The position numbers and the translations under genes were made by a program. From Scyliorhinus canicula (Eukaryota), in the NCBI RefSeq assembly GCF_902713615.1, contig NW_024055815.1, forward strand, positions 186,001 through 250,000: DNA of 64,000 nucleotides. Reading direction: 5' to 3'. Below the pieces are notes generated by a model. That model saw only the letters and a list, made by a program, of their open reading frames with translations. It had not been told where the DNA came from and ran no database searches. How positions within the stretch are numbered: position 1 is the first letter of the stretch; the number at the start of each line of letters is the position of its first letter. This document shows, piece by piece, positions 5,160 through 54,949 of this stretch.

Positions 5160-6246
5160 GATAGAACAGAGAAACATACAGCACAGAATAGGCCCTTCGG
5201 CTCACGATGCTGTGCCCAATATTTGTCCTAGATTAATTCTAGATTATCAGAATCTACAGTGCAGAAGGAGGCCATTCGGCCCATCGAGTCTGCACCGGGT
5301 CTTGGAAAGAGCACCCTCCCCGAGGTCAACACCTCCACCCTATCCTCATAACCCAGTAACCACACCCAACACTAAGGGCAATTTATCATGGCCAATCCAC
5401 CGAACCTGCACATTTTGGACTGTGGGAGGAAACCGGAGCACCTGGAGGAAACCCACGCACACACGGGGAGGATGTGCAGCACTCCACATAGACATTGACC
5501 CAAGCCAGAAATCGAATCTGGGACCCTAGAGCTGTGAAGCCATTGTGCTATCAACAATGCTACCGTGCTGCCCTCAAGAACAAATTAATCTACACTTCAT
5601 TATTCTACCATAATCCATGTACCTATCCAATAGCCGCTTGAAGGTCCCTAATGTTTCCGACTCAACTACTTCCACAGGCAGTGCATTCCATGCCCCCACT
5701 ACTCTCTGGGTAAAGAACCTACCTCTGACATCCCCCTATATCTTCCACCATTCACCTTAAATTTATGTCCCCTTGTAATGGTTTGTTCCACCCGGAGAAA
5801 AAGTCTCTGACTGTCTTCTCTATCTCTTCCCCTGATCATCTTATAAACCTCTATCAAGTCATCCCTCATCCTTCTCCATTCTAATGAGAAAAACCCTAGC
5901 ACCCTCAACCTTTCCTCATAAGATTTACTCTCCATTCCAGGCAACATCCTGGTAAATCTCCTTTGCACCTTTTCCAAAGCTTCCACATCCGTCGTAAAAT
6001 GAGGTGACCAGAACTGCACACAGCACTCCAAATGTGGCCTTACCAAGGTTTTGTACAGCTACATCATCACCTAACGGCTCTTAAATTCAATCCCACTGCT
6101 AATGAATGCTAGCACACCATAGGCCTTCTTCACAGCTCCATCCACTTGAGTGGCAACTTTCAAAGATCTATGAACATCGACCCCAAGATCTCTCTGCTCC
6201 TCCACAATGCCAAGAACCCTTCCGTTAACCCTGTATTCCGCATTCC
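5160..6246 (-). mobile_element. CR1 LINE 3' portion (interrupted by a SINE)
   Basis: ORFs 5699-6046 and 6071-6313 give CR1 RT C-terminus (VRPHLECCVQFWSPH, QRDLGVDVHRSLK). Confidence 0.9.
5241..5573 (-). mobile_element. HE1-like tRNA-derived SINE
   Basis: Minus strand GGGCAGCACGGTAGC head, GGTCCCAGATTCGATTTC B-box, GCGTGGGTTTCCTCC core and CR1-like tail. Confidence 0.85.
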
Positions 6247-13724: not shown

Positions 13725-14107
13725 CAGAAGCATAGTTTCAGTATCAATATTACTGTTTATGAAGCTCAAGATCGTGGTTGCTTTGCCAACTACTCTCTTA
13801 ATATGGCTTCACCTCTTTCTCTCTCCTCCCAAAGAGGCCAGTTGGGTTTTTATGACAATCCAGCAGTTTTCATGGTCACTTTGTCCGAGAGCCGACCCCA
13901 CAAGTGACCAGATTCATTCAGCTCAATTTCACAACCTGCCTTTGTGGTTTGTGGATTCTCTCTCACTCCCTATTTTCTGTTTTTACACCAGTTTCACAGG
14001 GTGTTCGAAGGGGAGGATTCAAAGTCAGGAAACTCAAACCAAGCATCACATCAGGATCTGACAGAGACTTCAATTTATCATATCCTGAATATTATCGTAC
14101 TTTAAAC

Positions 14108-14725
14108 ATGGAAGGAAAAAACATTGTTCACAGTGGGGAGAAACCGTACACATGTTGTGTGTGTGGACAAGGATTCAGTCAATCATCAGTCCTCACAAGC
14201 CACAAATGCAGTCACACTGAGGAGAAACCGTGGAAATGTGCGGACTGTGGGAAAGGATTCACTTCCCCATCCCATCTGGAAACTCATCGACGCAGTCACA
14301 CTGGGGAGAGACCATTCACCTGCTCCAAGTGTGGGAAGGGATTCACTCAGTCATCCCACCTGCTGAGTCACCAGCGGGTTCACACTGGGGAGAGACCATT
14401 TCAATGTCCAGACTGCAGGAAGTGCTATAAAAGTTCTGGGGAACTGATACATCATCAACGTGTCCACACTGATGAGAGACCATTTAGGTGCACTTACTGC
14501 GGGACTGGCTTCAGACAATCATCTAACCTCACTGTACATCAGCGAAGTCACACTGGGGAGAGGCCATTCTCCTGCTCAAAGTGTGGGAAGAGATTCATCA
14601 CTTCATCCCACCTGCAGACACACCAGCGAGTTCACATGGGAGAGAGACCATTCACCTGCTCCCAGTGTGGGAAGGGATTCACCACTTCATCCCTCCTGTT
14701 GAGACACCAACGAGGTCACAAGTAA
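14108..14725 (+). CDS. C2H2 zinc-finger protein, 7 tandem fingers (205 aa from [13 protein letters not shown])
   Basis: Seven CxxC-x12-HxxxH fingers, most joined by TGERP/EEKP-type linkers; exon acceptor tttcacAG at 13999; no KRAB seen. Confidence 0.9.
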
Positions 14726-15136: not shown

Positions 15137-16037
15137 TGTTGCTCGTTCTGGGTGAGTGTGCTTTACACTCAATTGGCTCTGTTTTATTCCTTAGCTCTAG
15201 AGTCACCAGGTATCTTTATGATGCTGCCACGACGTTCAAGTTCAGATCAATGACTCAATACACCAGTTAGTAAGGTTCAATCAAACACGTTTATTATTTA
15301 CACAGTAAATCGATACTCATGCAACTAATACTAGCGGACTAATCTATTCCTACCACTATAAGCCAATACTTATCTTTGATAAGGGAACCCACTGGATAAG
15401 GGAACAATGGCCTCTTGTTCTGTCCTCAGACTGCAGGCTTCCCAGTTGGTATGGGCTAAGGGGTCAGGAGTGTCTATTCTCGTAGTGAGCGTTGGTTGGA
15501 CACTTACTTGTCGGTGTAGCTGTTGGCCAGGCCTCTCCTTCTCATGTTCAAGTTCTTAGAGAGCTGCAGCAAAGGTGTTCTGCTGGGAGGGCCGGCTAAG
15601 AGAGTGAGCTGGACTTGGGACCTGACTTTTATAGGTCCCAGGGGCTTTGCGCCCTTTTGGGCGGACCCCTAACTCACTGGCAATCGATTGGGTCTCATCT
15701 CAATCGATTGGTACGAATCCCCCAATACTGAGGCTGCCCCTTGATCGCGTGGCGGTCCTTCCTAACTGGTTTGTTTCCTTTTGTTTCAGACCCCGTTGGC
15801 GCCGGGAAGTCTGACCTGCCATAGAATGTCCCAATTGTAGCTAATCGTTGTATCCATTGTTCCCGGGGATCGCTTCATTAATATGCAAACTGCTGGTTTC
15901 CGTGCTGTCTGCTTTCTTTGCAGCCAGAATACACATGAACTTCCGCAAACTGCTTCTCTTTATAATTGTCCAGTTTTCCCTGCAACCTTTGTAAATCACC
16001 ATTTTGGGTCAGGAAGTGGCCAACTTCGGTGGCTACA
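15137..16037 (-). mobile_element. 3' LTR (901 bp) of an LTR retroelement
   Basis: Minus strand starts TGTAGCCAC directly after the PPT AAGGAGGGAG (16038-16047) and ends GAGCAACA; TATAAAA at 15627-15633, AATAAA at 15290-15295; inserted into a SINE head (15079-15136). Confidence 0.85.
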
Positions 16038-17885
16038 CTCCCTCCTTGTGATCCTAACGCAAAAGCGTGAAGGATCACATAACTACTGTGTCTTCGTTCC
16101 TGACCTCAGCGTGTTCCATGGCCTCTGCACTTTCCTCAACTATGCAGAAACATTTTACCTTACAATCTCTATTTGGCGCCATGTCATAAGGGGACATGCA
16201 CTACAAAACAACAAACTGGAACCTCTAACTATCTGAAATAAACTACACTCACTGAAAACATACAAGCATATAAACTTCCTAACAATATAAATAATAGTAA
16301 CATTCACATTTCACCTTCCCTGACTCGGCAGTCGACATCTTTACACAAATACACATATCTTTATTGACAAAGTGACACGGAAAATTCTTTATTGCATTTC
16401 AAGTGGTTCGGGGGACTGGTGGAAGCCGAAGATAGGGGATCTCATCCTATATACCGCCAAGGTACGAGAGCGGTAGGCTCTCCTTCGTCATTTCCTCATC
16501 CGAAGGGTCTGCACTATGATGCAGATTACTGCTATCGCCAAAAGTGAGTCCACTACGTATGACAAGGAGTACCAAGCCAGAAATTTGGTACACCAGGGGT
16601 ACTGCTACTTGTTACTGGGCTTTGAGTGGTCTATGGAAGTGAAACATTAACGGCCGGTGGAGTGGGGGTAAGGGGGTTCGCGCGCAAAAATATACATAAG
16701 ATAACGAAAAATACAGTTGGTGCCGTCATCTTCCTGCTCTGTTCTCTTCACTGATCTCTTTTCCTGCTGTGATCTTGCTCTGATCCTGCTTTGGTCCCTC
16801 CTCGGAACGTCTGAAAGCTATGGGATCAAGCATAGTGTCTGTTAGTGTTCCGCTTAATATCTTGAATTTTAGTATGTGTGTCCTCTTGAGCCAAGTTTCC
16901 CTTTATGATTGGCCACTCTCTGTGACTCATGTTTATCAGGGCTACCTAAAATAAAACAAACAAAACCAAACTTTTAGAACCAAGACTAGCTAAATGAGTT
17001 GCGTATGGGCCGCGACGGGTAAGATTTGGGTGGAATCCCCGGGTAGGGCGTGCTGTGCCATACCCGAGCTTAGCTGACCAGAGGGGGGTCCTCAGACAGG
17101 GCGGGTCCTCAATGCCGTTACTCCACTGCCTGAGTGACCTGAAACGAACGGGCAAGAATGTAGTCATCATGGGGGTTGCCTCTTCCATCCTTCAAACAGA
17201 AGAGCAGTTACGAAACTGGAACTAGCAAGCTCTCAGAGGTTTCGGCCGAGATGCCTGCTGGCTGGGCTTCAGACATTTTCGCTGATAAGGCGTCTGTCAA
17301 ATTCTCCTAGGTTTCTGCGGACAAACTTGGTGTCTGGCTGCAGAGCTGCTGTTCAAGAAAAAAAACAAACACAAACAAACAAACATGCAACACAAACACA
17401 AAAAGGTTCCATCAGAAAAGGACACCGTTAATCTCTCAAGCGGTTCCTCTTTTTACATCATCTGGACACCTCAATCATCATCTTCTGCGAACAGGGTCGC
17501 AAAGGGGTTGCCGTGTCAGGAGTCAGACTTAAAGTCATCCTCGTCTCCCGGATCCCATACCCTTGTATGGATCAGGCTTGCTATGGTTGCATTGTGTGAT
17601 CGTGGGTCCCTCTTGTCATTCCGGACGGGTCTACATGAGTTGTCTCGGTGCCAAATCGTGGTATCTAAGTCGGTATGAACGTTGTCGGGGTCGTCATAGT
17701 TGGGCGGTGGGTCTGGGTGTGGGTTTGGTGTTTTAATGTAGGTGATCTCCAAGGGATCACTGGAGTCGGGGTCGTAGTCGCTGTGTGTGTGGTCAGCGGT
17801 TTCGGAGCGGTAGAGAGGAGTGCTGTGGCTGTCTTCAGAGTCCCAGTTGCTGTCTCTGCTGTGGCAGCTTGTTGTCGGGGCGGAA
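16038..17885 (-). mobile_element. 3' internal region of the LTR retroelement (ERV or Gypsy class undetermined)
   Basis: Contiguous with PPT and LTR; stop-free D/S/T/P-rich frame 17516-17884, splice acceptors and short ORFs; cut off by a CR1 fragment and the gap. Confidence 0.75.
16389..16729 (-). pseudogene. Decayed small type-I membrane protein ORF of the LTR element (about 113 aa)
   Basis: Reconstructed MTAPTVFFVILCIFLRANPLTPTPPAVNVSLP*TTQSPVTSSSTPWCTKFLAWYSLSYVVDSLLAIAVICIIVQTLRMRK*RRRAYRSRTLAVYRMRSPIFGFHQSPEPLEMQ; needs two stops read through and 1 nt restored in a C run. Confidence 0.55.
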
Positions 17886-26710: not shown

Positions 26711-28034
26711 CAGGTTTGAACGAATCTCTCTTCAAATTACGTCACAGACAGGGTAGTGGTCCCAGTTGTCCCGGGGCCTTGGTGTGTTGACCTCAGCAGA
26801 CAGCGCTGTCAGTCAGCTGCAGCCTATTCAATGTGAAAATTGTGATATTCTTTGGCGTATTCAGAAGAAAAGGAAACGAATGTTAACCTCTTTCGTTCCA
26901 TAGAAATGTATATGAAGTACGAACGTGGAAGCATTGTTCTGGGTCTGACAATAAAAGTAGAACAGAAAAGTTCACATTTGGAGGTTGAACAGATACAATA
27001 TAAACTCAGCGGATTGAGCTTCTGTTACTCACTGTCCGACCCGATCTCCAGGAACCACTCCTATTTGTGGTTAACCCACACAGCAGACTGAAAAATTAAT
27101 AGAAAGTTGATGGTTGCGTCGATATATTAGATTGATATATCAATCGATTGCTCGATAGATAGATACGTAGATAGACAGACAGATGGAATGAATATTAAAG
27201 CTGATAGCATTTTATCTTTTTCAAGAACCCGTCGGACGGGCGGACTAATGGAGAGACTGGGTGAACCAACCCGAACTTAATACAACTTATAACGTAATAC
27301 AAAGGATAGTCGCTTTTATAAATCGATCCTCACGGTTGATAGGAAACAAGTTCCGGGATGTTCATGCTGCTAACATGTGCAGTTTGATCGCTATGAATAT
27401 CCAACATGATATTACCGCACTGACACAACCTCAGGGATTTCCATCCCAGAAAGCTCGCTCTGACAAGTCCAAGGTTTTTGAAAGTGTCTCTGATGGAATT
27501 TTTCCTTTGTGTTTCTATGGCTGTGTTAATCTGGCTGCTTATTTACTTTAATGGTTGTCTGTGTGTCTGTTTGAGAGATCAGTTTGTGGGTCGATCACTG
27601 TGTTTACCTGTCTCCGTGTCTATGTTTGTGCTGATTCTGTGCTGTAAACGAGGCGGCTGGGAGATGGACATATTCACTTACTTTCACCATTAGCAACTCA
27701 GACTAATATGCACTCAAAAATCATGTCAACGAATGTTGGAATTTATTGCAGTGTCTGTGCATGTCTGGATGATGTTTTCGTACATGTCGTTGCACGTGGC
27801 CGTGTGTGTTTCCAATAGGCGGTTGTGCTGTCCCCAGGAGGGCGCTCTCTGATCACGTATCAAACATCACCGACCCGTTCCAGAGGAAGCGGCCGCTTTA
27901 AGACGTGTAGGTGGGAGGAGCGAAGAAATCGGATTCGAACTCATAACATCTCGCTAATTGTTTCATCTCCGCCAATTACAGGGCTGGTCCAGTCAGTGAT
28001 ACCTGTCTCTGTATCTGGAGTTCAGATTCGAACC

Positions 28035-28506
28035 ATGGGGCTGATACTCTACCTGTCTCTGGTTATTGTCCTGATGACAGGTTGGTTATATTGAACCTCT
28101 GTACTGAATCCTCCAATTCCCAAATGTGTTCTTATTTCCATCTTCGGGTGCTCATCCGCTTCACATTTCTCCTTCTAACCAGCTTTTCCTTTTCAGGGAT
28201 GAGTAAGGGAGACTCGGTGTCTCAGGAAGAACAACGAGTCGACGCAGAAGAGGGTGAAGATTCAGCCATACCCTGCAGTTATTCGGTATCGAGTTCAGCT
28301 GCAGGCTATTACTTCTTCTGGTATCGCCAGTATCCACACCGAGCTCCTCAGTATCTGCTCAGAGCCGATAGTTATGGGTTCAACGAGACGGCTCCCGGCT
28401 TTGAACGCTTCAGCGGGAAACTCAACCCGACACAAAGCACTTTTCACTTGTCCCTGACAGATTTGAAGATGACAGACAGCGCCGTGTATTATTGCGCACT
28501 GAGACC
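28035..28506 (+). CDS. TRAV: TCR alpha/delta V segment 1, intact (leader 28035-28080, V exon 28197-28506)
   Basis: MGLILYLSLVIVLMTG leader; C23, WYRQ, DSAVYYCALR; RSS CACAGTG-23-ACATAAACT at 28507-28545. Confidence 0.93.
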
Positions 28507-29258
28507 CACAGTGAATGAGGGCCCGGCGGGGCTCATACATAAACTGGCGCAATTTCCGTATCAAGTAAGCACAAGGAGTTGCATTGGTACAGATAATAAA
28601 CGGGACAATCCAGCTCCATCTGAATGGGTTTCCCTCAATGAGGTCAATGGTTCTCACTGTTGGGCCATTGGACATTTGACGGTCATTATACCCCAGAATC
28701 AAATTCCATAATTTCCCGATCCAATTTATATAAACCTGCCGATCCCGGAGGATCATTTCATCAATCTGTATTTGTGAAACTTCTTGATCAGGTGGTAATC
28801 TACCATGCAGCACTTTTTAAAAGTGTTCAAATTCAGAGTTGTCACTGTTTATATTTCCTGGGGTACAAGTGATGACTGACTGAAATCAGTACTTTACCGG
28901 TACAAGAGACCCCCAGTGGAAGCGCATCTTGGTGTAGAGTTGGATGACTATTTATCCCGGGTACCTTTAAAACAGTAATTATTAATTATGTTCGTGCACT
29001 GAATGGCCTCGTTAATATCTGTGTGTGAGACTGATATTAAAATATTTATTTTATCTTTCACATTTTTGGGGAGGAATATCTACCTCAGGAAAGATGTGAA
29101 AGTTGAGGTCGAAGGAAAACGATTTCAACCGAGCAAGTGACAGAATGACGGCAATGTGAGGAAGGGAGCGAGAAAGACAAACACACAGCCAGGGATGGAA
29201 TGTGATTGGAGAGAACCCGCATTAATAAACGCTCACCTGACAGTGATTGGCCCTCAGC

Positions 29259-29266
29259 TGACGTCA
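29259..29266. promoter_or_regulatory. CRE site in V2 promoter
   Basis: TGACGTCA about 170 bp upstream of the V2 ATG, flanked by CCAAT boxes; CRE elements are known in TCR V promoters. Confidence 0.55.
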
Positions 29267-29431
29267 GAGCTGAGAGACCAGCCAATCGTAGTACTGACAA
29301 ACGTCCCTCAGTTTCCCAAGAATTGATCTGCGTTTACTCTTTGCCACTGGTCTGGGTTTGCACTTTGATATGAGACTACAAGCAGCAACATATTTGAAAC
29401 AGTGTCGCTTTTTACTGTTCAATCAGGAACC

Positions 29432-29869
29432 ATGTGCTCCCTGTGTGATTTACTGATAATAATGGTCTTGCTGCCCGGTGAGTCTGAGCTCAAATCCTCC
29501 TCCTGTGTTTCATGGGTTATATTTACTCACAGATTTCTGACACATTCTATATGTTGTTGCAGGAACCAGCGGCCAAGATTCGGTTTCCCAGGATCCGCCT
29601 GAATTAACGGTTCAGGAAGGACAGACAGCAATATTGAACTGCAGTTACAAAGCAAAATATACTGGCGAGACTCTCTTCTGGTACATCCAGTATCCAGGGG
29701 AAGCTCCGAGATATCTACTGAAGAAATATAGTGCGGGGAAGGGAGAAAGGTCTTCAGATTTCCCTGACCGGTTTTCTGCTGATTTAGACAAGGATAAGAA
29801 AACGATTCCTTTAAATATCACCGGGGTCCGTGTCTCTGACTCTGCCGTGTATCTCTGTGCTCTGAGCCC
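29432..29869 (+). CDS. TRAV: TCR alpha/delta V segment 2, intact (leader 29432-29477, V exon 29563-29869)
   Basis: LNCSY, WYIQ, DSAVYLCALS; RSS CACACTG-23-ACAAAAACC at 29870-29908. Confidence 0.93.
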
Positions 29870-30651
29870 CACACTGTTACAGAGGGACTCTCAACCCGTA
29901 CAAAAACCGGTAAAGCACTCTCACCTCAATTCACTGAATTAGATCTTTCACCTGGATTGTGAACTGTTTATGTAAACAAAGCAATATTATAAAGAGCAGC
30001 TAGCCCTAATTATTTCTTTCTGTAGTGCTGAACGTGTATCATTGTCTGCTAAATCCCTTTTTATAGTAGTTTCTGTGCTTTGCGAGCAGCTCTCCAAATG
30101 CCACCGTCATGACAACACTAAATAGCATCCATCTGTGCCCTGTCTCAAAGATACGCTCAATAATAGGACCAACATTCGCTTTCACGCCCTTTCTGTGTCA
30201 CAGAGAGCGACAGTTGTTCGTCGTTTAGTTGTTTCGAGACCTATGTTGGATTTGGCGATATTCGGGGAAATAAGGGAGATGAGGGTGGTGCAGGAAATTA
30301 GATTCCAGGTCGAACAACTATGATCTGTACAATTGCAGAGCACCCCCATGTGAAGGGGCAAATCGTCCACTGCAGATCCTGCTCCTCATCATCTGATGTT
30401 CTTGTGTTCAGTTCATTGTTCTGAAAACAGGTGCAAGTGGTTCCGGGCTCCTCGCTCTGACGTAACAAAGAAACGGATCTAATTGGATGAAATGTCGGAC
30501 ACAGGAGCTTTGAGCTGATTGGGTGTCTCCTGCTGACTCTGTCGGGAATGAACCAATCGGTAGTGAGGCCGGATATTACTCACATCTTCTGAACTCTGGA
30601 CTGCAACAATTCAGCTGCAACTCACAGTTCAAACCACTACCATCTCTGAAC

Positions 30652-31190
30652 ATGTTGAGATGCCTGTTACATTTTCATCAGAGCTGCAACTCACTTAACT
30701 GGTAAGTTCCCAAGGGGCACAATTTCCAGACAGCTCGCGATACTTACATTGTGATCCACCCTTAACTGTAATATATACAATTCCATGATTTCATGATTTC
30801 TAACAAAGTAATACAAAGTTTAAGCTCGGATTTCTATTTTTCGCAGGTACTATCGGTGCAGATATGGTTTCACAGGAACCTGTTACAGCGACAAAGTTTG
30901 AAGGAGAATTGATTACTATTGATTTCAGCTATTCGACCACAGCTGGTACATATTATTTGCAATTGTACCGTCAGGACCGGGACGAAGCCCCCATATTCTT
31001 GATCTACATTCCTAATTACGGAGATGTTTCCAGAGCAGTGGGCGTGGGGAGTCGATTTTCTGCATCTTTGGACAGTTCGAGGAGTGAGGGTAATTTCAAC
31101 ATCCGGGAACTGTTGCTGTCTGACAGCGCGGTGTAGTACTGCGGACTGAGAGACAGTGACAGCAACCAGAGGGAGTCTGGTACAAAATCA
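30652..31190 (+). pseudogene. TCR V segment 3 pseudogene
   Basis: Leader frameshift; V exon from 30847 with C23F, W41L and a TAG in YYC; RSS GACAGTG-23-ACAAAATCA at 31152-31190. Confidence 0.88.
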
Positions 31191-32464
31191 CTGTCGCAGT
31201 GTGACACTGTGAATGGAACTGGGTACAGATTGGGAGATAAACCTGCAGATTTTTCTCATTTGAAAATATTGAAATAAGTATAAAGCCGAAAGTAATAGTG
31301 CTGCATTGGGAAAGTTCTGTTCCATTCCATTCACATTAAATACATTCTAGACAGAATGAAAAGAAATATTTGGAGCATTTGTATCATTTTGTAATTGAAC
31401 AATGTCGCGAAAGAAATGTTGAAAACAATACTTAACGATGTGATGTAGCGGTTACAGGAAGTAACACAACAAGTAAATGCAGCCGCAATAGCAGGCATAC
31501 AAGCTGGATTCAAAAACAGCTTCTTCCCCGCTGTTACCAGACTTCTGAATGACCCTCTTATGAACTGAACTGTCCTTGTGTGGCGACATGGAGATTTTCA
31601 CAGTAACTCCATTGCATTGTTAATGTAAGCCTACTTGTGACACTAATAAAGATTATTAATATTATTATTATACTACACTGCGTATGCTCACCCGATGTCT
31701 GTGCCTATAGATTTATATTGTGCATCTATCGTATATCCTGTTTTTCATTAATGCAACAATCTGACTGGACTGTACGCAGAACAATATTTTTCATTCTACC
31801 TCGGCACTTGTGACACTAAAATCCAAATCCAAAGCTGCAGAACATGTAGTGAAGAAAATGTTCTGGTTATTCTTCCATTAACCCGTTTTTCCGACCATTC
31901 GGTGACCATTCCGCTACCGAAAACGTACAACGCCTGACCTCACAGTTTACTATATTATTTTCATTGGCTTCTAATCATGTCCTGAAAATACCGCTTTATA
32001 ACTGTTCATGTGACTGTTCATTCTTAGTTTTAATATTCGTTAGTGTATTTAACATTGAGAGGAATTTTATCAGCCTATTCTATTAATTGGGAGTTTCCTC
32101 ACCATGCTGGATTCGGTTTACATTACAGCCTGATGTCACAAACAGAAAAGTCTTTGCTCTCACTCGGAGTTTTTTTTCCTCATCAGAGGTGCACGGATAT
32201 CAATAGTTCCAGACCCACGGGTGGCAGTACTCGCAATGGTGGTAGCGATTCTCCGAGACTCGAAATGAACAGCAGCAAGTTCCTCCCTCTCACAGTTAAA
32301 GCAACAATCAGACTGAATCAGTATTCAATGCGAACCATTTTAGGCGGCGTTGCTATGGATTGTGCTGTAGTTTATGTGCACGAGAATCTATTAACTTGTC
32401 AGTAGCCGATCTGCTGTTTAAAAACTCTTCAACAGACAGCAGCTGTGACCCAGAAACTTGCGGC

Positions 32465-32980
32465 AGTTTTTGCTCGAGACTTTCACTCGCTCCCATCACT
32501 GCGACACTCTGTGCACAGTAACAGACCGCGGTGTCAGACAGCCGCAGCTCCGAGATTGTCAAGGGGTACAACTTGTCCGACTGTTGCACTAAATCGAAAA
32601 ATAATTTCGGCGCGAAATCCGCCTTAAGTGAATCCCTGCCGTCTCGTGCCTCCTGGCAGCAACCCCAGGCTGTCTGTCAGGGAACTGACGGTGACGGAAT
32701 AAGTAAAATGCATCGTCGGTATAAGTGCAGGTTAAAGTGACATCTTCCCCTGTGTCTGTGCGAGTTAGGATTCCCGCTGAGTCACAGAATCTCCATTGCT
32801 AAGAGCTGGAGCACACGGTTATAGAAAGCGGAAATCATTGCTTAAAAATTCAACTGAACTGACAGTAAAAACTCGCAGACTGTTCTATAAAATGAAATGG
32901 AATTTATACTCCTGAAAAGAACATCTGACTCAGTACCGAGATGCTCACACTTTCTACCAATATCCTCTAACCAGCTTCAT
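32465..32980 (-). pseudogene. TCR V segment 4 pseudogene
   Basis: V exon 32504-32805 (DSVTQRES*, VTLTCTY, LTISELRLSDTAVCYCAQ) with stops and frameshifts; RSS CGCAGTG-23-GCAAAAACT; leader placement uncertain. Confidence 0.85.
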
Positions 32981-33329
32981 CCAACTCGAAGATAGCCTTC
33001 CAAACCCTCCTGCCTCCTTGGCCCCTTAAATGCATCAATTCGCCTCTGTCACTACCTGTGATGGACATTTCCATATTCTAACCTCTACTAGGTGAAGACA
33101 TTTCTCGGGAATTCCCGGATCTGCAATTCATCCGAGAGGCAGTTTGATTTCTAATTGAGTGTCTCAGAGTTCCGGTGAGTATATTTTGCCTGATGCGTCT
33201 GCTCCCTCCTTCCTGGAACACATTGTTTGGTGAAGTTGTTGACATGGCAGACTGGGAGAAAATGAATGTTCCACATTCTGCACTTTCCTCTGTTTTAATA
33301 AATTTAAAGTACACAATTCATTTTGATTT

Positions 33330-33515
33330 CAATCCAGGGGCAATTTAGCGTGGCCAATCCACTTACCCTGCACATCTTTGTATTCGTGGGGGTGAGATCC
33401 ACACAGACACAGGGAGACCGCTGAAACTGAACATGGACAGTGACCCGAGACCGAGGATCAAACGCGGCTCCTCAGCACCGTGAGGTAGCAGTGCTAACCA
33501 CTGCGCCACCGTGAC
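33330..33515 (-). mobile_element. HE1-like SINE
   Basis: cacggtggcgcagtggttagcactgctacc head on the minus strand. Confidence 0.8.
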
Positions 33516-33914
33516 GCTCCCATTCTGCGCTTTCCTGACACGGGGGAGAAGGAGAGAGAGGTTCCGAGACACAGAGGAAAGAGATTGGCACACAGACATA
33601 CTTAACGATTGAAAGAGCCAGACAAACATCGAGAAGAACAAAGGACGCAGAAAAAGACACAGTGCAATCTAGAGAAAGAGTTAGTCACTGAGCTGACACT
33701 AATACTGAGTGTTAGCCAATTGCTGACAGGGAGCACATGTGTTCACTTGCGTGATCAGCAGCAATGAGAAGCCAGCCAATCCTACCATTGGGCCACGCCC
33801 CTTAGTTGCCCAATAAATGAAATCTGCCTTTGAATTTCCTTTTTCATGTCAGACTATAAGAGTTAACATGTTTTAACAATTCTGTGACTTCTGTGAAATT
33901 CTAAAGCAGCAACC

Positions 33915-34338
33915 ATGTTCTCTCGATGTTCTTTTCTAATACTGTTGTTCTTGATGCCCGGTGAGTCTATGTTCAAATGGTCACTGTCTGTTTCCAGCGT
34001 TCGTTCCCAGGTATTAAATAGATTCTGTAATTTGTTGCAGGAACAAATGGCAAAGATGAAGTGTTCCAGGATCCCCCTGAATTAACAGTTCTGGAAGGAC
34101 GGGCAATAACACTGGGCTGCAGCTACTCGACAATTGGTGCTCCAACTCTGTTCTGGTACATCCAGTCTCCCGGAGAAGCTCCGAAATATGTATTCAAGAT
34201 ATATAGCTCAGGAGCTACGTCTCAAGATTTGCCAGCCAGGTTCTCGGCTATTTTAAACAAAGAAAACAAAACGGTTCCTTTAAATATCGCCGCGGCGCTT
34301 CTCTCCGACACCGCCGTGTATTTCTGTGCCTTGCAGCC
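33915..34338 (+). CDS. TRAV: TCR alpha/delta V segment 5, intact, same family as V2 (leader 33915-33960, V exon 34041-34338)
   Basis: LGCSY, WYIQ, DTAVYFCALQ; RSS CACACTG-24-ACAAAAACC at 34339-34378. Confidence 0.92.
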
Positions 34339-35537
34339 CACACTGATGCAGAGAAATAGTGGAGCCTGTACAAAAACCCCAGCGTGAGAGTTCCAGTTAT
34401 TGTCAGCAGTTGCGCTCGCACTGAAAACATTAACCAAAACTGAACCTGCGAGGGTCATTATTAAGATTTGAGAACAAAAAACAACACCCAACAATAACGT
34501 AAGCAGCAGCTGAGGAATGTTATTAGTTAGTTTTTTAACTTGCAGCTATACTGTAAATTAATTTCACAAACCAATTTATGGTGCGTTCACCCACTTTCTG
34601 CCTTTTTGTGATCTTGTCCTGTCTTTCGGAATCAATGTGAAATCCATTCTCCATTCACGCTCTCTTTCTGGGTCTCTTCGACCACAGCCGGCACATAGTG
34701 CCTATTTGGCTAGAGTATTTTGCTGGTAACAAGCCAAAAGCTCAGAATTACCTCAATGTTTATTTACAAATGTTTATTTGAATGTTTTCTGACACAATTC
34801 ACAGCCTAATTCTTCCGCCTGACAATAACCAGATGACCGGGGCCATTCCTACCCCGTGCCTAACGGTGAAACCTGTATTCTTATAAAAATACTGACTAGA
34901 TCTCTGTTATGGTTGTTTAGATTCACTGACAGCCTGTTCCCCAAGTCCAGATGCTAAAGCACCATTGGGCCACGGTGGAACAGCGGTTAGCTCTGCAAAA
35001 AGCAGCTGAGACGGACCTACAGTTTGTAACACAGTCGCTGGAAAACGTCCCTTAGTCGCCAGATAAGTGAAATCTGTTTCTGATCTGCGTTTAATAACAA
35101 GGATTCTTTTTCTGCTGAAGTCTACATTAGACACCGTGTTCTCTCCAGGGCCGTTTCTGATAATGGCCATGCTGCTTGGTAAGACTATGTTCAAAGGGAC
35201 ATTGTTTATTCCATGTGTTAGTATCCATCCCAGACTCTGACACAGCCTGTGTTCTTTTGCCGCAACAAGTAACACAGACTCACTACTCCTGGGTCGCCTA
35301 CTACTGTTGGAACATCAATATTCAGGGTAGGCTCCGAAATAATTGCTGTGGTGATATAACTCGGATCATGGAGATAAGTCTCAGGGTTTCCGAGACCGGC
35401 TTTCTGTTCAGGTGGACAAGGATAAAGACATCAATGCAAATGTGTCTTACATAAACATGTCAGTTTTGTTCACTGCGAGCACGGAAATAGACTTTCGCAG
35501 TTAGAGGCATCAAAAACATTCAGCCGAGAAGAAAGGA

Positions 35538-36105
35538 GGTCTTTGTACGACTTCTTGTCTTGTATCAGACACTGTGCCTCACTGAACAGTAATAAACCGC
35601 TCCGTCTCCACATTCAGGGCGCTTATGTTCAGGTAACCAGACTTTGTAGACTAATCATCAGTCGCCAGATATCGTCCTGAGATTTTATCTTTCTTCAGTA
35701 CTGCTACAGTACTTTGTAAATTATGCAAATTGGAGGATGTGCCTGTTTCTGCCGATACCACTGCATGGTGTTTATACCCTGATCTGTATACTCGCAAATT
35801 AACTGCGCCGAACGCTCTTCTAACACAGTTAATGTCACTGGAGACTGAGTCAATGCACATAATCCGCCTGTGAAAGTCGATGAACAAAAGAGCCCGAGAT
35901 TAAATAGAGTCAAGCGAAACGTGTGTCTATCGAGACGTAAGTGTGTAAACTCTCATTTGCCAAGCTACACATAACATGTATATATCTTATCGTTAACGAT
36001 ATTAATGTTGAGTGCAAACTCTTTGCAATCAATATGCTAAACTGTCACGATGAACCTAATCGTATACTGACCGTCCCAGAGCGTCGCCAGTATTATTAGA
36101 AACAT
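35538..36105 (-). pseudogene. TCR V segment 6 pseudogene
   Basis: Leader 36072-36105, V exon 35577-35867 (LICEY, WYRQ, GAVYYCSV) with two frameshifts and a TAG; RSS CACAGTG-23-ACAAAGACC. Confidence 0.88.
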
Positions 36106-36568
36106 GTCTGATTAAATTTCTCAGTGAATGGGAATGAAATGAGTCAGAGAATGAGAAAGAGAGAGGGATCCCAGGCTCTGTTCAACACTGTTCCAGCCAC
36201 AGGGGGTCAGGCCTATTGTGACATCACTCAGGATACCATCATGTTTGGACTTTAACCAGGTTGTTGTCAGACTTCTTACTGCTCGCCCAGGGCGACGCCA
36301 GCATCTCCACGTCCCTATTGGCTTTGGCATTGATCTGTCGTGACTTTCTAATCAGCATACTGCTGCCTGCCTCCCTCTGCTGACGGATTCTCTTCAATCC
36401 AATGTATAACTACTGAGTGGGTTTATTGAAATACACATCAAAACAGAAATGTTAAATATTGTCTCTCAAAAACCTAAATAGATGACGAAACGCAATCTTC
36501 ATTTTTCTGCACAAAGAATCAGCTGTCCCACCCACTGAGTTAAAGCGCACGCAAAAGCTCTGAATTCA

Positions 36569-36632
36569 TAGCCAGCCAGGAGTGGAACCTGGAATATGTT
36601 GTCAGAAGCGATATCCATTGTGCCACTGGGCC
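36569..36632 (-). pseudogene. tRNA-Arg (ACG-family) pseudogene with deletion
   Basis: GGCCCAGTGGCACAATGGATATCGCTTCTGAC...ATTCCAGGTTCCACTCCTGGCTGGCT; anticodon-arm 3' side and variable loop missing. Confidence 0.75.
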
Positions 36633-36726
36633 ACAGCGATGCGCGCCATTGGCTATTCCTCGTTGATTGAGACCAATTACGAGATTGAGGTAATATTCAG
36701 CAAAACACAAACTTGGAAGCACGAGG

Positions 36727-36799
36727 TGTTTCTGCCTGGTTTTGAAAAGGGGACCTTTCGCGTGTGAGGCGAATGTGATAAGCACTACACTACAGAAAC
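36727..36799 (-). pseudogene. tRNA-Val(CAC) pseudogene
   Basis: Full length, but B box GGTTCG is changed to TTTTCA. Confidence 0.85.
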
Positions 36800-37087
36800 A
36801 GCTGGCAGGCAATGGACGTGTACAATGTACAACGTCACTGTGTTGCTGCAGATTGTAATAGTGAGGCTGAGAGGCCACGTCACTTATTCCAAGACGACAG
36901 CTGTTTCTTTAAAAAAAACAGATGTTTCAACATATAAAACCATGAGGTGTAGAAATTATATCGAAATTAACATAAGTTATATTTTGCTTAATGTCGGTCT
37001 TAAATTTGTGCTCTTTGGTCTCGAGGTCTGGTTCTCGTTTAGGGATTTTTAATCAATGCCTATGGGAGTGGTCGTGGGTTTAAATCC

Positions 37088-38991
37088 CACCTATTGCTAG
37101 CCGTCTATCGAGGCCCAATACAGCACTCCACCACCCCCACCACCCCACCCACAATCGTCTGAATCTCCAATTCCAGTTCTCCAGCTTTGACAAAGAGTCC
37201 ACTTGACTGGAAACGACAGCTGCCATTTCGCTGCCCAGAGGCTGTCAGACCTGCCGAGATTATCCAGTATTTTCTGTTTTTGTTTCCGTTTGAAGCATCC
37301 GCAGTAAGTTGCATTTGTCATACATTTAGACATGTTTGAGATGGTGATTAAATATGTTCATTTGTAAATCGCTGAAATTCTGTTGTGGATGAACTAGCTG
37401 CTAATATCCGAGCTGTGCCAAGATAAGAAAATTCTTCACCTCTCATTGCCTGCCGAAAATTCAGTGCTTGGGCCTTAATGTTCAATTCAGTTTAGTGGCT
37501 CATGTGAGACGAAATCTCATAGTCCTGGAACACACGAGGTTCCGGCAACATTCAGGAAACAGAATTATTTTGTGCCCAATAATTGTGCAAACTTTTCTCA
37601 CACGAAATGCTAAATGTTGGATGTTATTGTCCGGTTTTGAACCGGGGACTTTTCGCGTGTGAGGCGAATGTGATAACCACTACAGAAACCGCTGGCAATT
37701 AATGGACGTGCGGAATGTACAACCTCACTGTGTTGCTGCAGATTCTGATGGTCTGTTTGAGAGGCCAGGTCCCTTGTTGCAAGCGACTGCTGTTTCTGAA
37801 ATTAACAGATGTCTCAACATATAAAGCCGTGAGATGTAGAAATTATATCGAAATTAACATAAGTTATATTTTGCTTAATGTCGGTCTTAAATTTGTGCTC
37901 TTTGGTCTCGAGGTCTAGTTCTCGTTGAGGGATTTTCAATCAATGCCTATGGGAGTGGTCGTGGGTTTAAATCCAACACAGGCTCTTTACTCCAGGTCAG
38001 AGATTATGAATTGTTTGCGATGCTGACGGCGGGGTTGATTTACATTGGCCCTCTCAGAAAAAGATTTCTCAGGACTCGGAATGTTTACGTCGTTTCTCTC
38101 CCCATAGATGATGCTCGAGAGAGAGAGAGAGAGAGAGACAGTGTCTGAGCTGGAGTGTGTTTGGATAAAATTGATGCTCCAGATCTGTGTTAACCACAGG
38201 GACGTGACCCATCTAATCCACAGCCAAAGTGGAGAATTAAACTGACTGGAGAGCTGGGTCTTAACGCTGACCTCCCGGACCTCGGCGTCGTTGAATGTTC
38301 CAAAGAAGCTCAACAGACACTCGAGGAACAGCAGCGCATCTTTCCACTGGGCTCAATACAGCTTTCACACTCAGAGTGTGTTCAGCAGTTTCACACTGTA
38401 AATGCTGCACCCATTTTGTGTGTCCTTACATCGCAGATTTGGGTTTCAATCTTGTTTCCACTTGTTCTTTGTGTCCCTGCGGTAGTTGTTCATCAATCTG
38501 CCATCGATAGCTCCTCCAGACATACCTTTTGTTTCTTTGTTTCTTCCATTCCGCTAACAGAGAGCTGGCACAGACCCGGCGGACGGAATGGCCTCATACT
38601 GTGGTGTCATTATTCTCTGGTTTGATGCTAACCTAACTCTGTGGCCAGGTCCCAAGGCCTCTTCTCGTTTAATCTCTCCTGACTTGCCCCCTATTAGAGC
38701 CCTTTCCTGTTGTTCTGTTTCCTCCCTCTGAGAGTTCAATTGGTTAAGACGTACTACATTTCTAACCTGTCCCGGTTTTAATGAAAGGTGACGGTGAAAG
38801 ACGAACATTGTTGTCCTGTCGACAAATGTCGCCTGACTATCTGAGATGGTGCAGTACTTTTGGCGTTCTCCGCAGATGTTAGATTGATTTTCGATGGCAA
38901 TGACAGTATGCTTTGGCTCTTTTCGCGGGACGCGTTGGTCTAGGGGTATGATTCTTGCTTTGGGTGTCTCGCTGTCGGAATTTGCGAGAGG
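37088..38991. repeat. Copy of the tRNA-array unit (duplicate of about 44846-46752)
   Basis: Colinear near-identity from cccacctattgctagcc to the tRNA-Pro. Confidence 0.85.
37622..37689 (-). pseudogene. tRNA-Val(CAC) pseudogene
   Basis: 5-nt deletion in the 5' and D region plus substitutions. Confidence 0.8.
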
Positions 38992-38992
38992 T
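38929..38992 (+). pseudogene. Truncated intron-containing tRNA-Pro(TGG)
   Basis: Same 18-nt insert as the 46690 copy; T arm and 3' acceptor missing. Confidence 0.75.
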
Positions 38993-39269
38993 TCAGCAGG
39001 CCGTATCCTTCAATGGTGCGGCGATCCCAATACTGCAGCCGGCTCACGGTACTTGTTATCACAACATTATCACATCTTGCTTTATTGCAGCAGAGAAATG
39101 CATTCCTCTGATTGCCAGTGACACGCCAGTGAAAGACAAGGCCAGTAAAATTGGGCAGCCAATACCTGGACATAAATATGTACGTAGAAATCCTGGAAGT
39201 TTGTCACTCGCGGAATTATTATAGTGCCAGGAATGTTAAAGCACTCAGAATCACAGATGCACAGAACCA

Positions 39270-40150
39270 AGCAATTCAGATGAGGCCTTCCGGTCAATCG
39301 AGTCTGCACCAACATGTGAAAAATACAGGACTAACTACAGGACCTCATTTGTCAGCACGTGTTCCATAGCCTTGAATGTGAAGACGTGGAATGTGTTCAG
39401 CCAGGTACTATTTAATGGATGTGAAGCACACTGCCTCTCCCACCCTCCCACGTAGGTTACTCCAGACAGTCACCATCCTCTGAATAAATAAGATTTCCCT
39501 CAAATCCCCATAACCTCCTGCCCCTCACCTTGAACTTGTGTCCCCCCGTAACTGATCCTTCAACTAAGGGGAACTGCTCTCTATCCACCCTGCCATGCCC
39601 CTCATAATCCTGTACACCCAAAACTATGCAACGTCTCTTCATAACATAAATGGCGAAGTATGTCCCTGATCTGCGTGGGAATCGAACAGAAGACATGTCG
39701 TGTCAACAGAAATTTCAGGTATTTTCGATCGAAAAATTGATTTCTATTAAAGTCTAAACCTGGCACCATGTGCTTCCCATGTCCCAACTGATAGTAATTC
39801 TCATGTTGCTCGGTGGTTATTATACATTAAGCGTACATTGTCGTAATAATAATCTTCACTAGTGTCATAAGTAGGCTTACATTCACACTGCAATGAAGTT
39901 ACTGTGAAAATTCCCGAGTCACCACACTCCGGCCCCTGTTCAGGTACACAGAGGGAGAATTCAGAATGTCCAATTCACCTAACAGCACGTCTTTTCGGGA
40001 CTTGAGTGAGGAAACCGGAGCACCCGGATGAAACCCACGTAGACACGGGGAGGACGTGCAGACTCCGCACAGATAGAGAACCAAGCCGGGAATCGAACGC
40101 GGGTCCTATGAGCATGAGGCAGCAGAGCAACCCACTGAGCCACAGTGCCG
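39270..40150 (-). mobile_element. CR1 3' fragment (about 39270-39620) and HE1-like SINE (about 39880-40150)
   Basis: Reverse CR1 tail motifs and SINE core. Confidence 0.65.
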
Positions 40151-40609
40151 CCCATTAAGTACCTTGTACATTTTGTACCGCAGCACGTATTGATCCATTC
40201 TGCTTTGCGTTAAAAGAACAGGTAACGAGGAGTCTTAGTCCTTGGACTTTCTGCAAGAGCAGGCCATGATTTTCGTCCATCTCCTCAGTTGAGTGCCACC
40301 CTCTGCCGGTAGGTAGATATTCTGGTTTTAAAGTTACAATACAATTTGCGGTATGATAGACCATAATAAGACCATAAGACTATTAGACATAGGAGCAGAA
40401 TTAGGTCACTTGGCCCATCGAGTCCGCTCTGCCATTCAATCATGGCTGATATTTTCAACCATAGCTCTCAAGATTTCCCAAACTATTCCTCTCTTGATCT
40501 ACACAAGGACAGAGACATGTCTGGTAAATAGACATGATCGCTTGCCTGAGCTTGGGATCAATTCCTTCTCGGAAAGGAGCTCAACAGATATTTCAGTACA
40601 TGGAAGAAG

Positions 40610-42415
40610 AGGGAATTAAACAAAATTCAACAAAATACAAGAAAATACATGGGACTACGTAATAGGGCAACACAAGATATACAATGTAACTACATATGCA
40701 TTGGCATCGGTTGAAGCACACAGGGTGTAGTGTTAATGAGGTCAGTCAATAAGAGAGTCATTTAGGAGTCTGGTGACAGTCGGGAAGAAGCTGTTTTTGA
40801 GTCTGTTCGTGCGTGTTCTCAAACTTCTGTATCTCCTGCCCGATGGAAGAAGTTGGAAAAGTGAGTAAGGCGGGTGGGAGGGATCCTTGATTATGCTGCC
40901 CTCTTTCCCCCGCAGCGGGAGGTGTAGATGGAGTCCATGGATGGGAGGCAGGTTCGTGTGATGGACTGGGCGATATTCACAACTCTCTGAAGTTCCTTGC
41001 GGTCCTGGGCCGAGCAGTTGCCATACCAGGCTGTGATGCAGCCCGATAGGATGCTTTCTGTAGTGCACGTGTAAAAGTTGGTAAGGGTTAATGTGGACAT
41101 GCCGAATTTCCTTAGTTTCCTGAGGAAGTGTAGGCGCTGTTGTGCTTTCTTGGTGATAGCGTCGACGTGAGTGGACCAGGACAGAGTTTTGGTGATGTGC
41201 ACCCCTAGGAATTTGAAACTGCTAACCATCTCCACCTCGTCCACGTTGATGCTGACAGGGGTGTGTACAGTACTTTGCTTCCTGAAGTCGATGACCAGCT
41301 CTTTAGTTTTGCTGGCATTGAGGGAGAGATTGTTGTCGTTACACCACTCCACTAGGTTCTCTATCTCCCTCCTGTATTCGGACTCGTCGTTATTCAAGAT
41401 CCGGCCCACTCTGGTCGTATAGTCAGCCAACTTGTAGATGGAGTTGGAACCAAGTTTTGCCACGCAGTCGTATGTGTACAGGGAGTAGAGTAGGGGGCTA
41501 AGTACCCAGCCTTGCGGGGCACCGGTATTGAGGACTATTGTGGAGGAGGTGTTGGTGTTCATTCTTACTGATTGTGGTCTGTTGGTCAGAAAGTCAAGGA
41601 TCCAGTTGCAGAGTGGAGAGCCAAGTCCTAGGTTTTGGAGCTTTGATATGAGCTTGGCTGGGATTATGGTGTTGAAGTCGGAGCTGTAGTCAATAAATAA
41701 ATGAATGAAAAATGAAAATCCCTTATTGTCACGAGTAGGCTTCAATGAAGTTACTGTGAAAAGCCCCGAGTCACCACATTCCGGCACCTGGTACAGGAAT
41801 CGAACCGTGCTGTTGGCCTGCTTGGTCTGCTTTAAAAGCCAGCGATTTAGCCTGGTGAGCTTCACCAGCCCTTGGAGTCTGATGTAGGAGTCCTTGTTTT
41901 CGAGATGCTCTAGAGATGAGTGTAGGGCCAGGGAAATGGCGTCTGATGTGGACCGGTTGCGACGGTATGCGAATTGAAGTGGGTCAAGGCGTTCTAGGAG
42001 TATGGAGGTGATGCGCTTCATGATCAGCCTCTCGAAGCACTTCATTACAACTGACGTCAGGGCCGCCGGAGGGTAGTCATTGAGGCATGTTGCCTCGTTC
42101 TTCTTTGGTATCGGTATGATGGTGGTCTTCTTGAAGCAGGTGGGGACCTCGGTGTGGAGTAGGGATAGGTTAAAGATGTCTGTGAATACCTCTGCCAGCT
42201 GGTATGCGCAGGCTCTGAGTGCATGACCAGGGATCCCGTCCGGGCCCGTCGCCTTCCGTGGGTTCACTTTCAGGAAGGCCGATCTGACTTCGGAAACTTG
42301 ATGGTGGGTATGGGTGAATTAAGAGCTGCTGGGACACTCGACAGCGGATTGTTTGTTACCTGCTCAAACCGAGCATAGAATGCATTAAATTCGTCGGGAA
42401 GGGATGCGCTGCTGC
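40610..42415 (-). mobile_element. Rex1/Babar-type LINE, 5'-truncated
   Basis: ORF 40891-42267: [52 protein letters not shown]. Confidence 0.9.
41700..41873 (-). mobile_element. Short SINE inserted in the Rex1 RT
   Basis: 174-nt insert splitting the SYIRL/LFIDYSS motif. Confidence 0.9.
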
Positions 42416-42423
42416 CAGAGATA

Positions 42424-42595
42424 CAGTAAGAAGTCTTACAACACCAGGTTAAAGTCCAACAGGTTTGTTTCAAACACGAGCTTTCGGAGCGCAGCTCCTT
42501 CCTCAGGTGAATCACAAAACAGAACCATTTAACCTGGTGTTGTAAGACTTCTTACTGTGCTCACCGCAGTCCAACGCCGGCATCTCTACATCATG
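42424..42595. mobile_element. Inverted pair of Penelope terminal repeats
   Basis: 30-bp perfect inverted repeat 42424-42453 / 42528-42557 enclosing a hammerhead-like motif. Confidence 0.8.
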
Positions 42596-43014
42596 GCCAG
42601 AGATACTGCTCGACCCGGTCCGGTTATGTAGATCTTTGGGCTTTTTTTCTGAGGGATTCTTCTCCACAGACCGCTGAGATAGGCCCATTGAAGATTTTAA
42701 GACAGATGTGGTTGGATTCTCAACTGAAAAGGTAATCAAAGGTTATCCGGGTCGGTGAAATGTGAATCTGAGGTCATGGTCGCATCTGTCACGAACTTAT
42801 TGAATGTTGGAGAAGGCTCAAGGGGATGAATAGCCAACTCCTGCTCAACATTCGTCTGTTGGCAGGTCCGTGAGGAGGTGTCACAATCTCCTGAGTTATC
42901 GAGGGAGACACAGCATCGTTGAGCTATTCCCCAGCTCGGCGCCATGAAGGATATTACAGCGATAGAGGCAACTCCATGCCGCAGCCGGTGCACGGTACGT
43001 GTTATCAGAACAGG

Positions 43015-43183
43015 AAAATCGCTTATTGTCACGAGTCCGCTTCAAATGAAATTACTCTGAAAATCCCCTAGTCGTCACATTCCGGCGCCTGTTCGGGGAA
43101 GCTGTTACGGGAATCGAACCGTGCTGCTGGCCTGCTTGGTCTGCTTTCAAAGCCAGCGAGTTAGCCCTGTCCTAAACAGCCCC
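43015..43183 (-). mobile_element. Short SINE
   Basis: Same family as 19711. Confidence 0.8.
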
Positions 43184-43217
43184 TAAAAACATATCATCCA
43201 GGAGTGGAACAACAATT

Positions 43218-43234
43218 CGTCTCTGGGTGGGATC

Positions 43235-43291
<57 letters not shown>
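43218..43291 (-). tRNA. trnN-GTT: tRNA-Asn(GTT)
   Basis: GTCTCCGTGGCGCAATCGGTTAGCGCGTTCGGCTGTTAACCGAAAGGTTGGTGGTTCGATCCCACCCAGAGACG, 74 nt, one acceptor-stem mismatch; T5 terminator at 43185-43189. Confidence 0.9.
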
Positions 43292-43929
43292 GACAACAGG
43301 ATCACAACTCTGTGCATTTCAACAGTGACGGCCAATCCTCTGATTGCCAGGGTCCGAATGAGAATGCTGGTAATATTGGTCCCCTGAGGCAGTGCGGAAA
43401 ATATCTGGAAGGAGCGTACACATGGTCCCGCGGGCATGGACATTTGTGAGACGTGGAATCATCACAGGCCCGTGGATTTTACAGAACTCACTTGGACAGC
43501 ACCACACTTTCTTTGAAACACGTCCCTTATCTGGGAACCTCCATAACAGAAAGCAGGAAGTGTCAACATAGATTTGATGTATTTTCGATCAGAAAGTCGA
43601 TGTTCCGCTGAAGACTACTAGGGGCTCAGACTCATTGGCATAAGGTCGACCTAAGTTAACGGTCCTGGAAGATTTTATTATCCCCACATCTGAGAACTTT
43701 CATTACTGCTGCTCGGAAGTGGATATTCCAAGCTTAAATTTACTGTGCATCGCGACATGCTGATTAATCTCGCGAATCCGAAACGGCTCCTCTATTGACC
43801 AATACAAGGACAGAGACGGCAATGCAATTGTGGAGAAATAGACCTGAGTATTTTCCTGAATCCTGATCAAACCATCCTCCAGTACAAGGGCAGGAACGCA
43901 AATTTACTGGAATTGAAAATATTCTCTGA

Positions 43930-54725: not shown

Positions 54726-54949
54726 TTTGATCTTCTTCGTCCGCTTTTTTTTGGGAGCTGCTGTTGCTTTCTTTACCACCCCACTCCGGGTACCGACCAT
54801 AAAGTTGGTCTGTTTCTCTTCAGGGAGCCTTCCCCCACCGGGATTTGTCCTTACAGCGCCGTTGGGGCCCTCCAATCGGCCCGAAAACACCTTTGTAGCA
54901 GGAGCAGCCAAACGTGCGACTTAGCTGGTCATAGCCGCAACCGGAAGTC

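Follow-up and report, generated by a model that had tools for sequence, protein, structure and literature searches.

A small membrane-protein gene under purifying selection in the env position of an env-less catshark endogenous retrovirus family

Introduction

The loss of env is usually taken to turn an endogenous retrovirus (ERV) into a retrotransposon confined to its cell. A locus of the catshark Scyliorhinus canicula raises the question of what a small gene might do in the place that env has vacated. The stretch of DNA analysed here, called the window, covers 64,000 nt (contig NW_024055815.1, positions 186,001 to 250,000). The original prediction, made on its letters, had proposed that a short minus-strand ORF close to a 3' LTR encodes a membrane protein laid out like the FAST cell-cell fusogens of reoviruses, in a vertebrate LTR lineage devoid of env. 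Whether this ORF is a gene, whether the lineage is devoid of env and what kind of protein is encoded are considered in turn below.

The provirus of the window

In the window lies a broken copy, truncated at its 5' end, of a large catshark ERV family (Table 1). The minus-strand ATG at 16729, in the context AAGATGA, starts a small ORF with a hydrophobic N-terminus, and the remaining elements predicted for it, namely a stalk with an NVS sequon, a WC-x5-WY segment, a transmembrane (TM) helix and a polybasic stretch, were all found where they had been placed. Three lesions interrupt this ORF: codon 33 is a stop (16633-16631), the frame changes at about 16600-16595, and a further stop falls within the basic stretch (16490-16488). 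Both stops had been recognized from the start; the frame change had not been named, although the 341-nt span given for the ORF implies it. The ORF lies 340 nt upstream of the polypurine tract and about 740 nt downstream of the integrase stop. The integrase tail contains one early stop (17518-17516), and about 130 nt of the spacer are deleted. The point at which homology to full-length copies begins is common to the window copy and to the four duplicates examined (4/4), and the same broken insertion is found on at least seven scaffolds, within a segmental duplication. A C2H2 zinc-finger gene at 13856-14725 (plus strand) shares this duplicated block with the broken provirus on other scaffolds.

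Table 1. Features of the provirus in the window (minus strand, listed in the order of transcription)
Feature	Position	Strand	Remarks
3' end of pol (integrase tail)	17471..17884	-	Copy 5'-truncated; homology to full-length copies begins at about 17884
Spacer between pol and small ORF	16819..17470	-	18 window-frame dN/dS values, 0.79-1.42
Splice acceptor AG ending at 16818, preceded by branch-point-like CTAAC (16845-16841)	16818..16845	-	Next ATG is the small ORF start
Small ORF: start codon and predicted signal peptide	16679..16729	-	Hydropathy
Small ORF: Ser/Thr/Pro-rich stalk with N-glycosylation sequon (N-V-S)	16596..16678	-	Broken in window copy
Small ORF: Trp/Cys-containing membrane-proximal helix (WCxxFxxWY; window: WC-x5-WY)	16569..16595	-	Motif in 73/81 intact ORFs
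Small ORF: predicted single transmembrane helix with conserved Glu/Asp and Cys	16512..16568	-	19-residue hydrophobic stretch
Small ORF: polybasic juxtamembrane stretch and conserved cytoplasmic tail	16389..16511	-	ORF stop at 16391-16389
Polypurine tract	16038..16047	-	Directly before LTR
3' LTR, 899 nt, TG...CA	15139..16037	-	TATA box at 15633; AATAAA at 15295 and 15188

The rest of the window contains, on the plus strand, a cluster of V segments (27900-44200) in which several Ig V frames end in YYC/YFC motifs; judged by these motifs, the segments are presumably T-cell-receptor-like. A LINE-type element, almost complete and with frames resembling ORF1 and ORF2, occupies 49390-54920 (minus strand), 31-nt tandem arrays are present at 47400-49000 and 54850-55600, and a 314-aa single-exon frame at 62788-63732 (plus strand) resembles a seven-transmembrane receptor.

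Structure and affinities of the family

Full-length copies of about 9.3-9.7 kb carry gag with a CCHC knuckle that exceeds the Pfam cut-off, protease, reverse transcriptase (RT), a tether with a second RNase H, and integrase. Retroviridae features are completed by the LTRs, the primer site, the polypurine tract and a short target duplication, which measures 4 bp in the four, out of nine copies examined, whose outer ends are resolved. The primer site is complementary to a host tRNA-Arg(TCT) gene, and the primer of SnRV is likewise a tRNA-Arg. Gag starts without a myristoylation Gly in all 16 sequences considered (16/16). Among solved structures, those of foamy virus are the closest to both RT and integrase. 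When the RT was compared by eye with a printed alignment (supplement of PMC7947760), it proved identical to the SnRV row, without any gap, at about 80 of 138 positions (around 58% by this count), and among the rows inspected the family is clearly closer to SnRV than to Loki, WDSV, ZFERV-2 or HERV-L. In the eight young copies considered (8/8), gag and pol share one frame with UGA-CGG between them. This sequence belongs to the type II read-through contexts (PMC13517186) and is known in alphaviruses and coltiviruses; for retroviruses, the same review gives other contexts. On these sequences a Retroviridae-type element placed in the SnRV clade is likely, and the description of the element can be refined from a generic LTR retrotransposon to a true retrovirus relative.

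Two other memberships were rejected. The RT motifs are, by eye, unlike the Loki rows, and a search for PF00523, run at reduced sensitivity, was empty, which speaks against a Lokiretrovirus. Foamy-like ERVs, as characterized in PMC5210030, combine a Gag without Cys-His box, GGGTG at the border of polypurine tract and LTR, and a separate pol, whereas the present family has the CCHC knuckle and an in-frame gag-pol with UGA.

Further details were observed in individual copies. A spacer of 5 nt separates the LTR from the primer site, and in some proviruses this site holds the entire 3' half of tRNA-Arg(TCT), about 44 nt in spliced form and with CCA, rather than about 18 nt, as though reverse transcription had extended far into the primer. 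In the N-terminal third of Gag, a short unmyristoylated domain is followed by a long coiled-coil-like stretch.

The protein searches returned 5,170-5,893 first-look candidates each, the best 150 of which were scored. The family is probably thousands of copies strong, and about 250 loci out of these several thousand were examined. The mismatch between LTRs amounts to 0-1.1% in 11 young copies and to 2.1-5.8% in 14 older ones, and gag and pol are open in the young copies: the family has been recently active and is still copying without env. Gene models of Scyliorhinus torazame carry homologues of at least two subfamilies, one of them 76-82% identical to S. canicula copies. Across copies, the same types of signal peptide are paired with different types of stalk, a mixing that suggests recombination between subfamilies.

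Content of the env position

To avoid any bias toward the small ORF, 60 of the 131 best integrase matches were chosen without regard to it, and the 6 kb downstream were examined. The small ORF follows in 58 of these 60 copies, mostly 800-960 nt past the integrase end, and the other two break off. An env-sized frame is present in none of the 60, the longest other sense frame before the LTR being at most 245 aa; a lone frame of 608 aa proved to be the gag of a nested copy. Of six longer gaps that were inspected, five match interspersed repeats, and the sixth is a 1-kb insert with neither a match nor a frame of 200 aa. Likewise, env was found in none of 40 long loci picked by the small ORF and in none of 12 young copies, and the best 150 matches of each of three protein searches include no open frame above 322 aa. 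In a further subfamily, the integrase end lies within 1.5 kb upstream of the small ORF in 21 of 25 copies. Genome searches for an F-like env (PF00523) and for an Ig-headed env (using the Ig-like piece of a Xenopus relative), both insensitive, were empty, and no env-bearing sister of the family was found among all these copies and searches. In this sample, the SnRV-related family is env-less and holds the small gene in the env slot, and the absence of a conventional env from full-length copies, on which the original prediction depended, is thus borne out.

Selection on the small gene

The broken state of the window copy is not a property of the family. The frame is intact from ATG to stop in 88 of 150 distinct genomic loci, in 31 of 58 copies of the unbiased integrase-picked set and in 9 of the 12 young copies with near-identical LTRs, and it is kept across subfamilies and in two species. 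Together with the missing env, this leaves none of the three outcomes that were to count against the original prediction. After exclusion of seven of the 88 with altered ends, 81 intact ORFs were analysed. Values of dN/dS were obtained by pairwise codon counts on natural copies, where pairs share phylogeny and the intervals bootstrap codons only; in the unbiased 60, they reach 0.31 for the core (95% interval 0.24-0.39), 0.45 for the whole ORF and 0.12 for integrase. The controls gave 1.1 and 2.1 in shifted frames and 0.8-1.4 in the spacer and 3' flank. A row for the integrase tail, probably read in the wrong frame, was left out. Among the 81 intact ORFs, the mature part has 0.26-0.33, the TM block 0.15-0.19, the stalk 0.42-0.53 and the signal 0.55-0.77; constraint is tightest on the TM and tail. 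These values are conservative because mutations acquired after insertion push them toward 1. The small ORF is therefore a real gene under purifying selection, with a dN/dS of 0.2-0.3 in its core, and lies far beyond chance. To this extent the original prediction is supported: in a vertebrate LTR lineage without env, the vacant slot is taken by a small membrane-protein gene that selection maintains. For env genes of fish ERVs, dN/dS values of 0.12-0.23 are reported in PMC5210030, and selection on the small gene is comparable in strength. Whatever its function is, a retrovirus copying in the germline needs it.

A second frame of 74-80 codons, recurrent in the spacer of many copies, was rejected as a gene since it is under no coding selection. 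The spacer also contains a block (about 17170-16990 of the window, minus strand) that is conserved at the nucleotide level without coding signal. This block is likely a cis-acting RNA element, with RNA export or packaging as candidate functions.

Splicing and expression

A branch-point-like motif and an acceptor are located 40-90 nt upstream of the small ORF start. The acceptor motif could be matched at 97 of 150 loci; in 51 of the 57 intact copies that have it, the small ORF start is the first ATG downstream. According to RefSeq annotations, six of nine gene models containing the small ORF enter the element at this acceptor and are joined to host exons; one model joins exons 185 kb apart, and another departs from its sibling isoform exactly at the acceptor. 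The leader of several young copies contains a candidate splice donor. Contigs of four presumed-RNA runs cover all 30 bins of a young copy (30/30), and none of the 15 joints listed connects the leader donor to the acceptor; both results weigh on neither side. The sequence arrangement makes it likely that the small ORF is expressed from a spliced RNA of env type.

Host gene models of two catsharks, among them those for the EP3 receptor, a HEPACAM2-like protein, SUGCT and CFAP36, splice into this strong acceptor and gain a TM-encoding exon.

The predicted protein and the search for homologues

The encoded protein, of 113-121 aa, is predicted to be a type I surface glycoprotein with a cleaved signal peptide, a glycan and a surface location. 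It has one 19-residue TM and, with a topology taken from hydropathy and charge, a mature ectodomain of about 38 residues. The N-termini are very different between subfamilies, yet hydrophobic in 74 of 81 intact ORFs, and an A-x-A-type site closes them. Ser/Thr/Pro make up 55% of the stalk, which differs in sequence and length between copies and has no evident fusion peptide, while the N-glycosylation sequon is kept in 81/81. The Trp-rich helix is moderately amphipathic (mean hydrophobic moment 0.34, a value given without a control set). An invariant acidic residue is found within the TM, and the 15 residues after it contain at least five K/R in every one of the 81 sequences, the test threshold having been three or more. 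A conserved tail motif is present in 69 of the 81 and a late-domain motif is absent in 80, and the myristoylation motif MGxxxS/T occurs in none (0/81). A TM followed by a basic tail is in itself a generic layout. The AlphaFold model (pTM 0.33) shows a helical signal, a stalk without ordered structure and a single long helix, and is uninformative on the fold.

No homologue outside Scyliorhinus was detectable by sequence or fold in the searches run. A word-index search at near length gave no match, and HMMER over 1.84 billion representatives returned five catshark proteins and one chance bacterial match. A profile search of longer proteins retrieved nine catshark gene models and no env. The PDB and viral contigs contained no homologue, and metagenome contigs with integrase gave a single match of 18 residues. 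Atlas look-alikes all scored below 0.9, Foldseek (viral) had no match under E 1.5, and Pfam produced weak, sub-threshold TMEM156 matches in 30 of 32 sequences. Neither the small ORF nor the family was found described in the open-access literature.

Possible roles of the small protein

The reading that we prefer, at a probability of roughly 0.4, is that of a surface protein which replaces env and helps transfer from cell to cell, by analogy with sORF2 of Drosophila. In the env-less MDG1 elements of this insect, the small TM protein sORF2 is reported to let the element pass from follicle cells to the oocyte (10.1101/2025.03.14.642691). In the catshark, the spliced RNA of env type would yield the type I surface glycoprotein, and the signal peptide together with the polybasic stretch would direct it to the plasma membrane. 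There its variable stalk, with the glycan, would point outward and serve adhesion or immune contact, while the constant Trp-rich helix, TM and tail may act on membranes, by deforming or bridging them, and attract the cores of unmyristoylated Gag. By gathering viral cores at cell contacts, the protein could permit their passage into a neighbouring, possibly germ, cell. An element whose copying stayed within germ cells would have no obvious use for a glycosylated protein at the surface; that selection nevertheless maintains one after the loss of env favours a surface role. Against transfer, the predicted signal peptide and glycosylated stalk and the lack of a myristate are unlike every known small fusogen; env-less ERVs, moreover, amplify without any such protein. 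As to origin, a signal, a Trp-rich stem, a TM and a tail downstream of an env-type acceptor would agree with an env that had lost everything but its ends.

The same features can be turned to other ends. A minimal envelope stub might merely give the unmyristoylated Gag a membrane for assembly, inward budding and maturation within one cell, which we regard as unlikely though well worth keeping in mind. The missing N-terminal Gly of Gag, a constraint that is greatest on TM and tail and least on the stalk, and the env-type position and acceptor are all consistent with such an assembly aid, and the stem of VSV G is known to promote budding. The sequon kept in all 81 ORFs analysed and the many distinct stalks suggest, on the other hand, an exposed and contacted surface, and other env-less ERVs assemble without a gene of this kind. 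An accessory protein of the Vpu/Nef type, inherited from a complex SnRV-type ancestor and removing or masking a restriction or immune surface protein of the host in the copy-producing cell, appears improbable. It would suit a constant TM engaged in host interaction beside a variable stalk, and PMC12193657 describes in SnRV four accessory ORFs, 52-205 codons long, that are carried by spliced RNAs; but the sequence searches found no homologue, the stalk dN/dS of 0.4-0.56 does not exceed 1, and an intracellular germline copier profits little from blocking release or surface immunity. There is a slim chance that the protein is a viroporin, an oligomeric ion channel of the class IA layout that PMC4334499 gives for the alpha1-like proteins of rhabdoviruses, with aromatic residues in the N-terminal part, a TM at the centre and a basic C-terminus. 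The invariant acidic residue within the TM would be in keeping with a channel, as would influenza M2 among the weak Atlas look-alikes (0.85, to be taken as a lead only), against which stand a signal peptide and glycosylated stalk foreign to the class IA description and a generic layout that no sequence or fold match supports.

Two further explanations were considered. These genomes might be defective and borrow the envelope of a rare env-bearing helper, the small ORF then serving as a common accessory gene or as a co-factor of env. In other hosts, relatives from the SnRV clade do carry env (PMC4422223) and the sampling of the family is partial, at about 250 loci, but the integrase-picked, long and young copies (0/60, 0/40 and 0/12) are all without it, and the open gag and pol of young copies are those of autonomous elements; a helper is accordingly very improbable. 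A functionless remnant of a deleted env, or a chance frame carried along by copying, is hardly credible. The broken window copy, and the resemblance of signal peptide, Trp-rich stem, TM and tail to an internally deleted env, had made it conceivable; it is largely refuted by the low dN/dS, which is confined to the small-ORF frame, by N-termini that are diverse but always hydrophobic, by in-frame length changes and by conservation in two species. These observations tell against a lack of function, not against an origin from a shrunken env.

The preferred reading, cell-to-cell transfer, can be carried further, into territory that we consider doubtful: a lineage that dropped its envelope may have continued, over millions of years, to invade the shark germline through a miniature, signal-peptide-bearing, glycosylated fusogen passing cores from somatic to germ cells. 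This would be a third independent FAST-like route and the first in Retroviridae. The many intact natural variants make the function of the protein directly testable.

Comparison with known systems

Only one catshark ERV, ERV-Spuma.0-Sca, has been described (PMC10699275). It shares the host species and a similar length (9.2 kb) with the present family; it is annotated there with a 1.3-kb env, however, and its printed LTR start is by eye unlike that of the family, so that it is a different element. SnRV and the SnRV-like ERVs (clade Huo; PMC12193657, PMC6001957, PMC4977317, PMC4422223) resemble the family in their RT, at the by-eye identity given above, and in a gag and pol set in one frame with a read-through stop. 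The context of this stop is UAG-GGC in SnRV (PMC13517186) versus UGA-CGG in the shark family, and SnRV is described with a full env, with a tail of 136 residues, in addition to its accessory ORFs, whereas the shark family has no env and a single selected small ORF. The class IA viroporin-like proteins of rhabdoviruses (PMC4334499) have in common with the shark protein the aromatic residues before a central TM and a basic C-terminal part; they differ from its predicted signal peptide, glycosylated stalk and retroviral context, and no homology links them.

The small fusogens are the closest in design. The FAST proteins p10 to p22 of reoviruses, in the account of PMC3952855, resemble the shark protein in size (113-121 aa, within 95-198), in an ectodomain of about 38 residues, in one TM and in a membrane-proximal polybasic motif. 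In that account, however, their TM is a reverse signal anchor and they have neither signal peptide nor glycosylation, whereas the shark protein has a predicted signal peptide and a sequon that is always kept. The sORF2 of the MDG1 group (10.1101/2025.03.14.642691) likewise belongs to an env-less LTR element; it is small, crosses the membrane once, has a short ectodomain and carries a polybasic patch behind its TM. Its element is one of the Metaviridae, unlike the Retroviridae-type shark family, and the screen described for sORF2 demands an MGxxxS/T myristoylation motif and no signal peptide, while the motif is absent from all 81 intact shark ORFs analysed. The function of sORF2 has been demonstrated, whereas that of the shark protein is proposed, and no sequence link was found between them. 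With its topology taken from hydropathy and charge, the shark protein fits the FAST/sORF2 size class (60-210 aa, single TM, N outside, ectodomain of 10-50 aa). Its predicted signal peptide, its sequon and the missing myristoylation motif place it outside that class, to which it had originally been likened; at most it would work like its members. If passage from cell to cell is true, screens that demand env or a myristoylation motif overlook elements of this kind, and the route taken by sORF2 in Drosophila reaches the vertebrate retroviruses by means of a different protein design.
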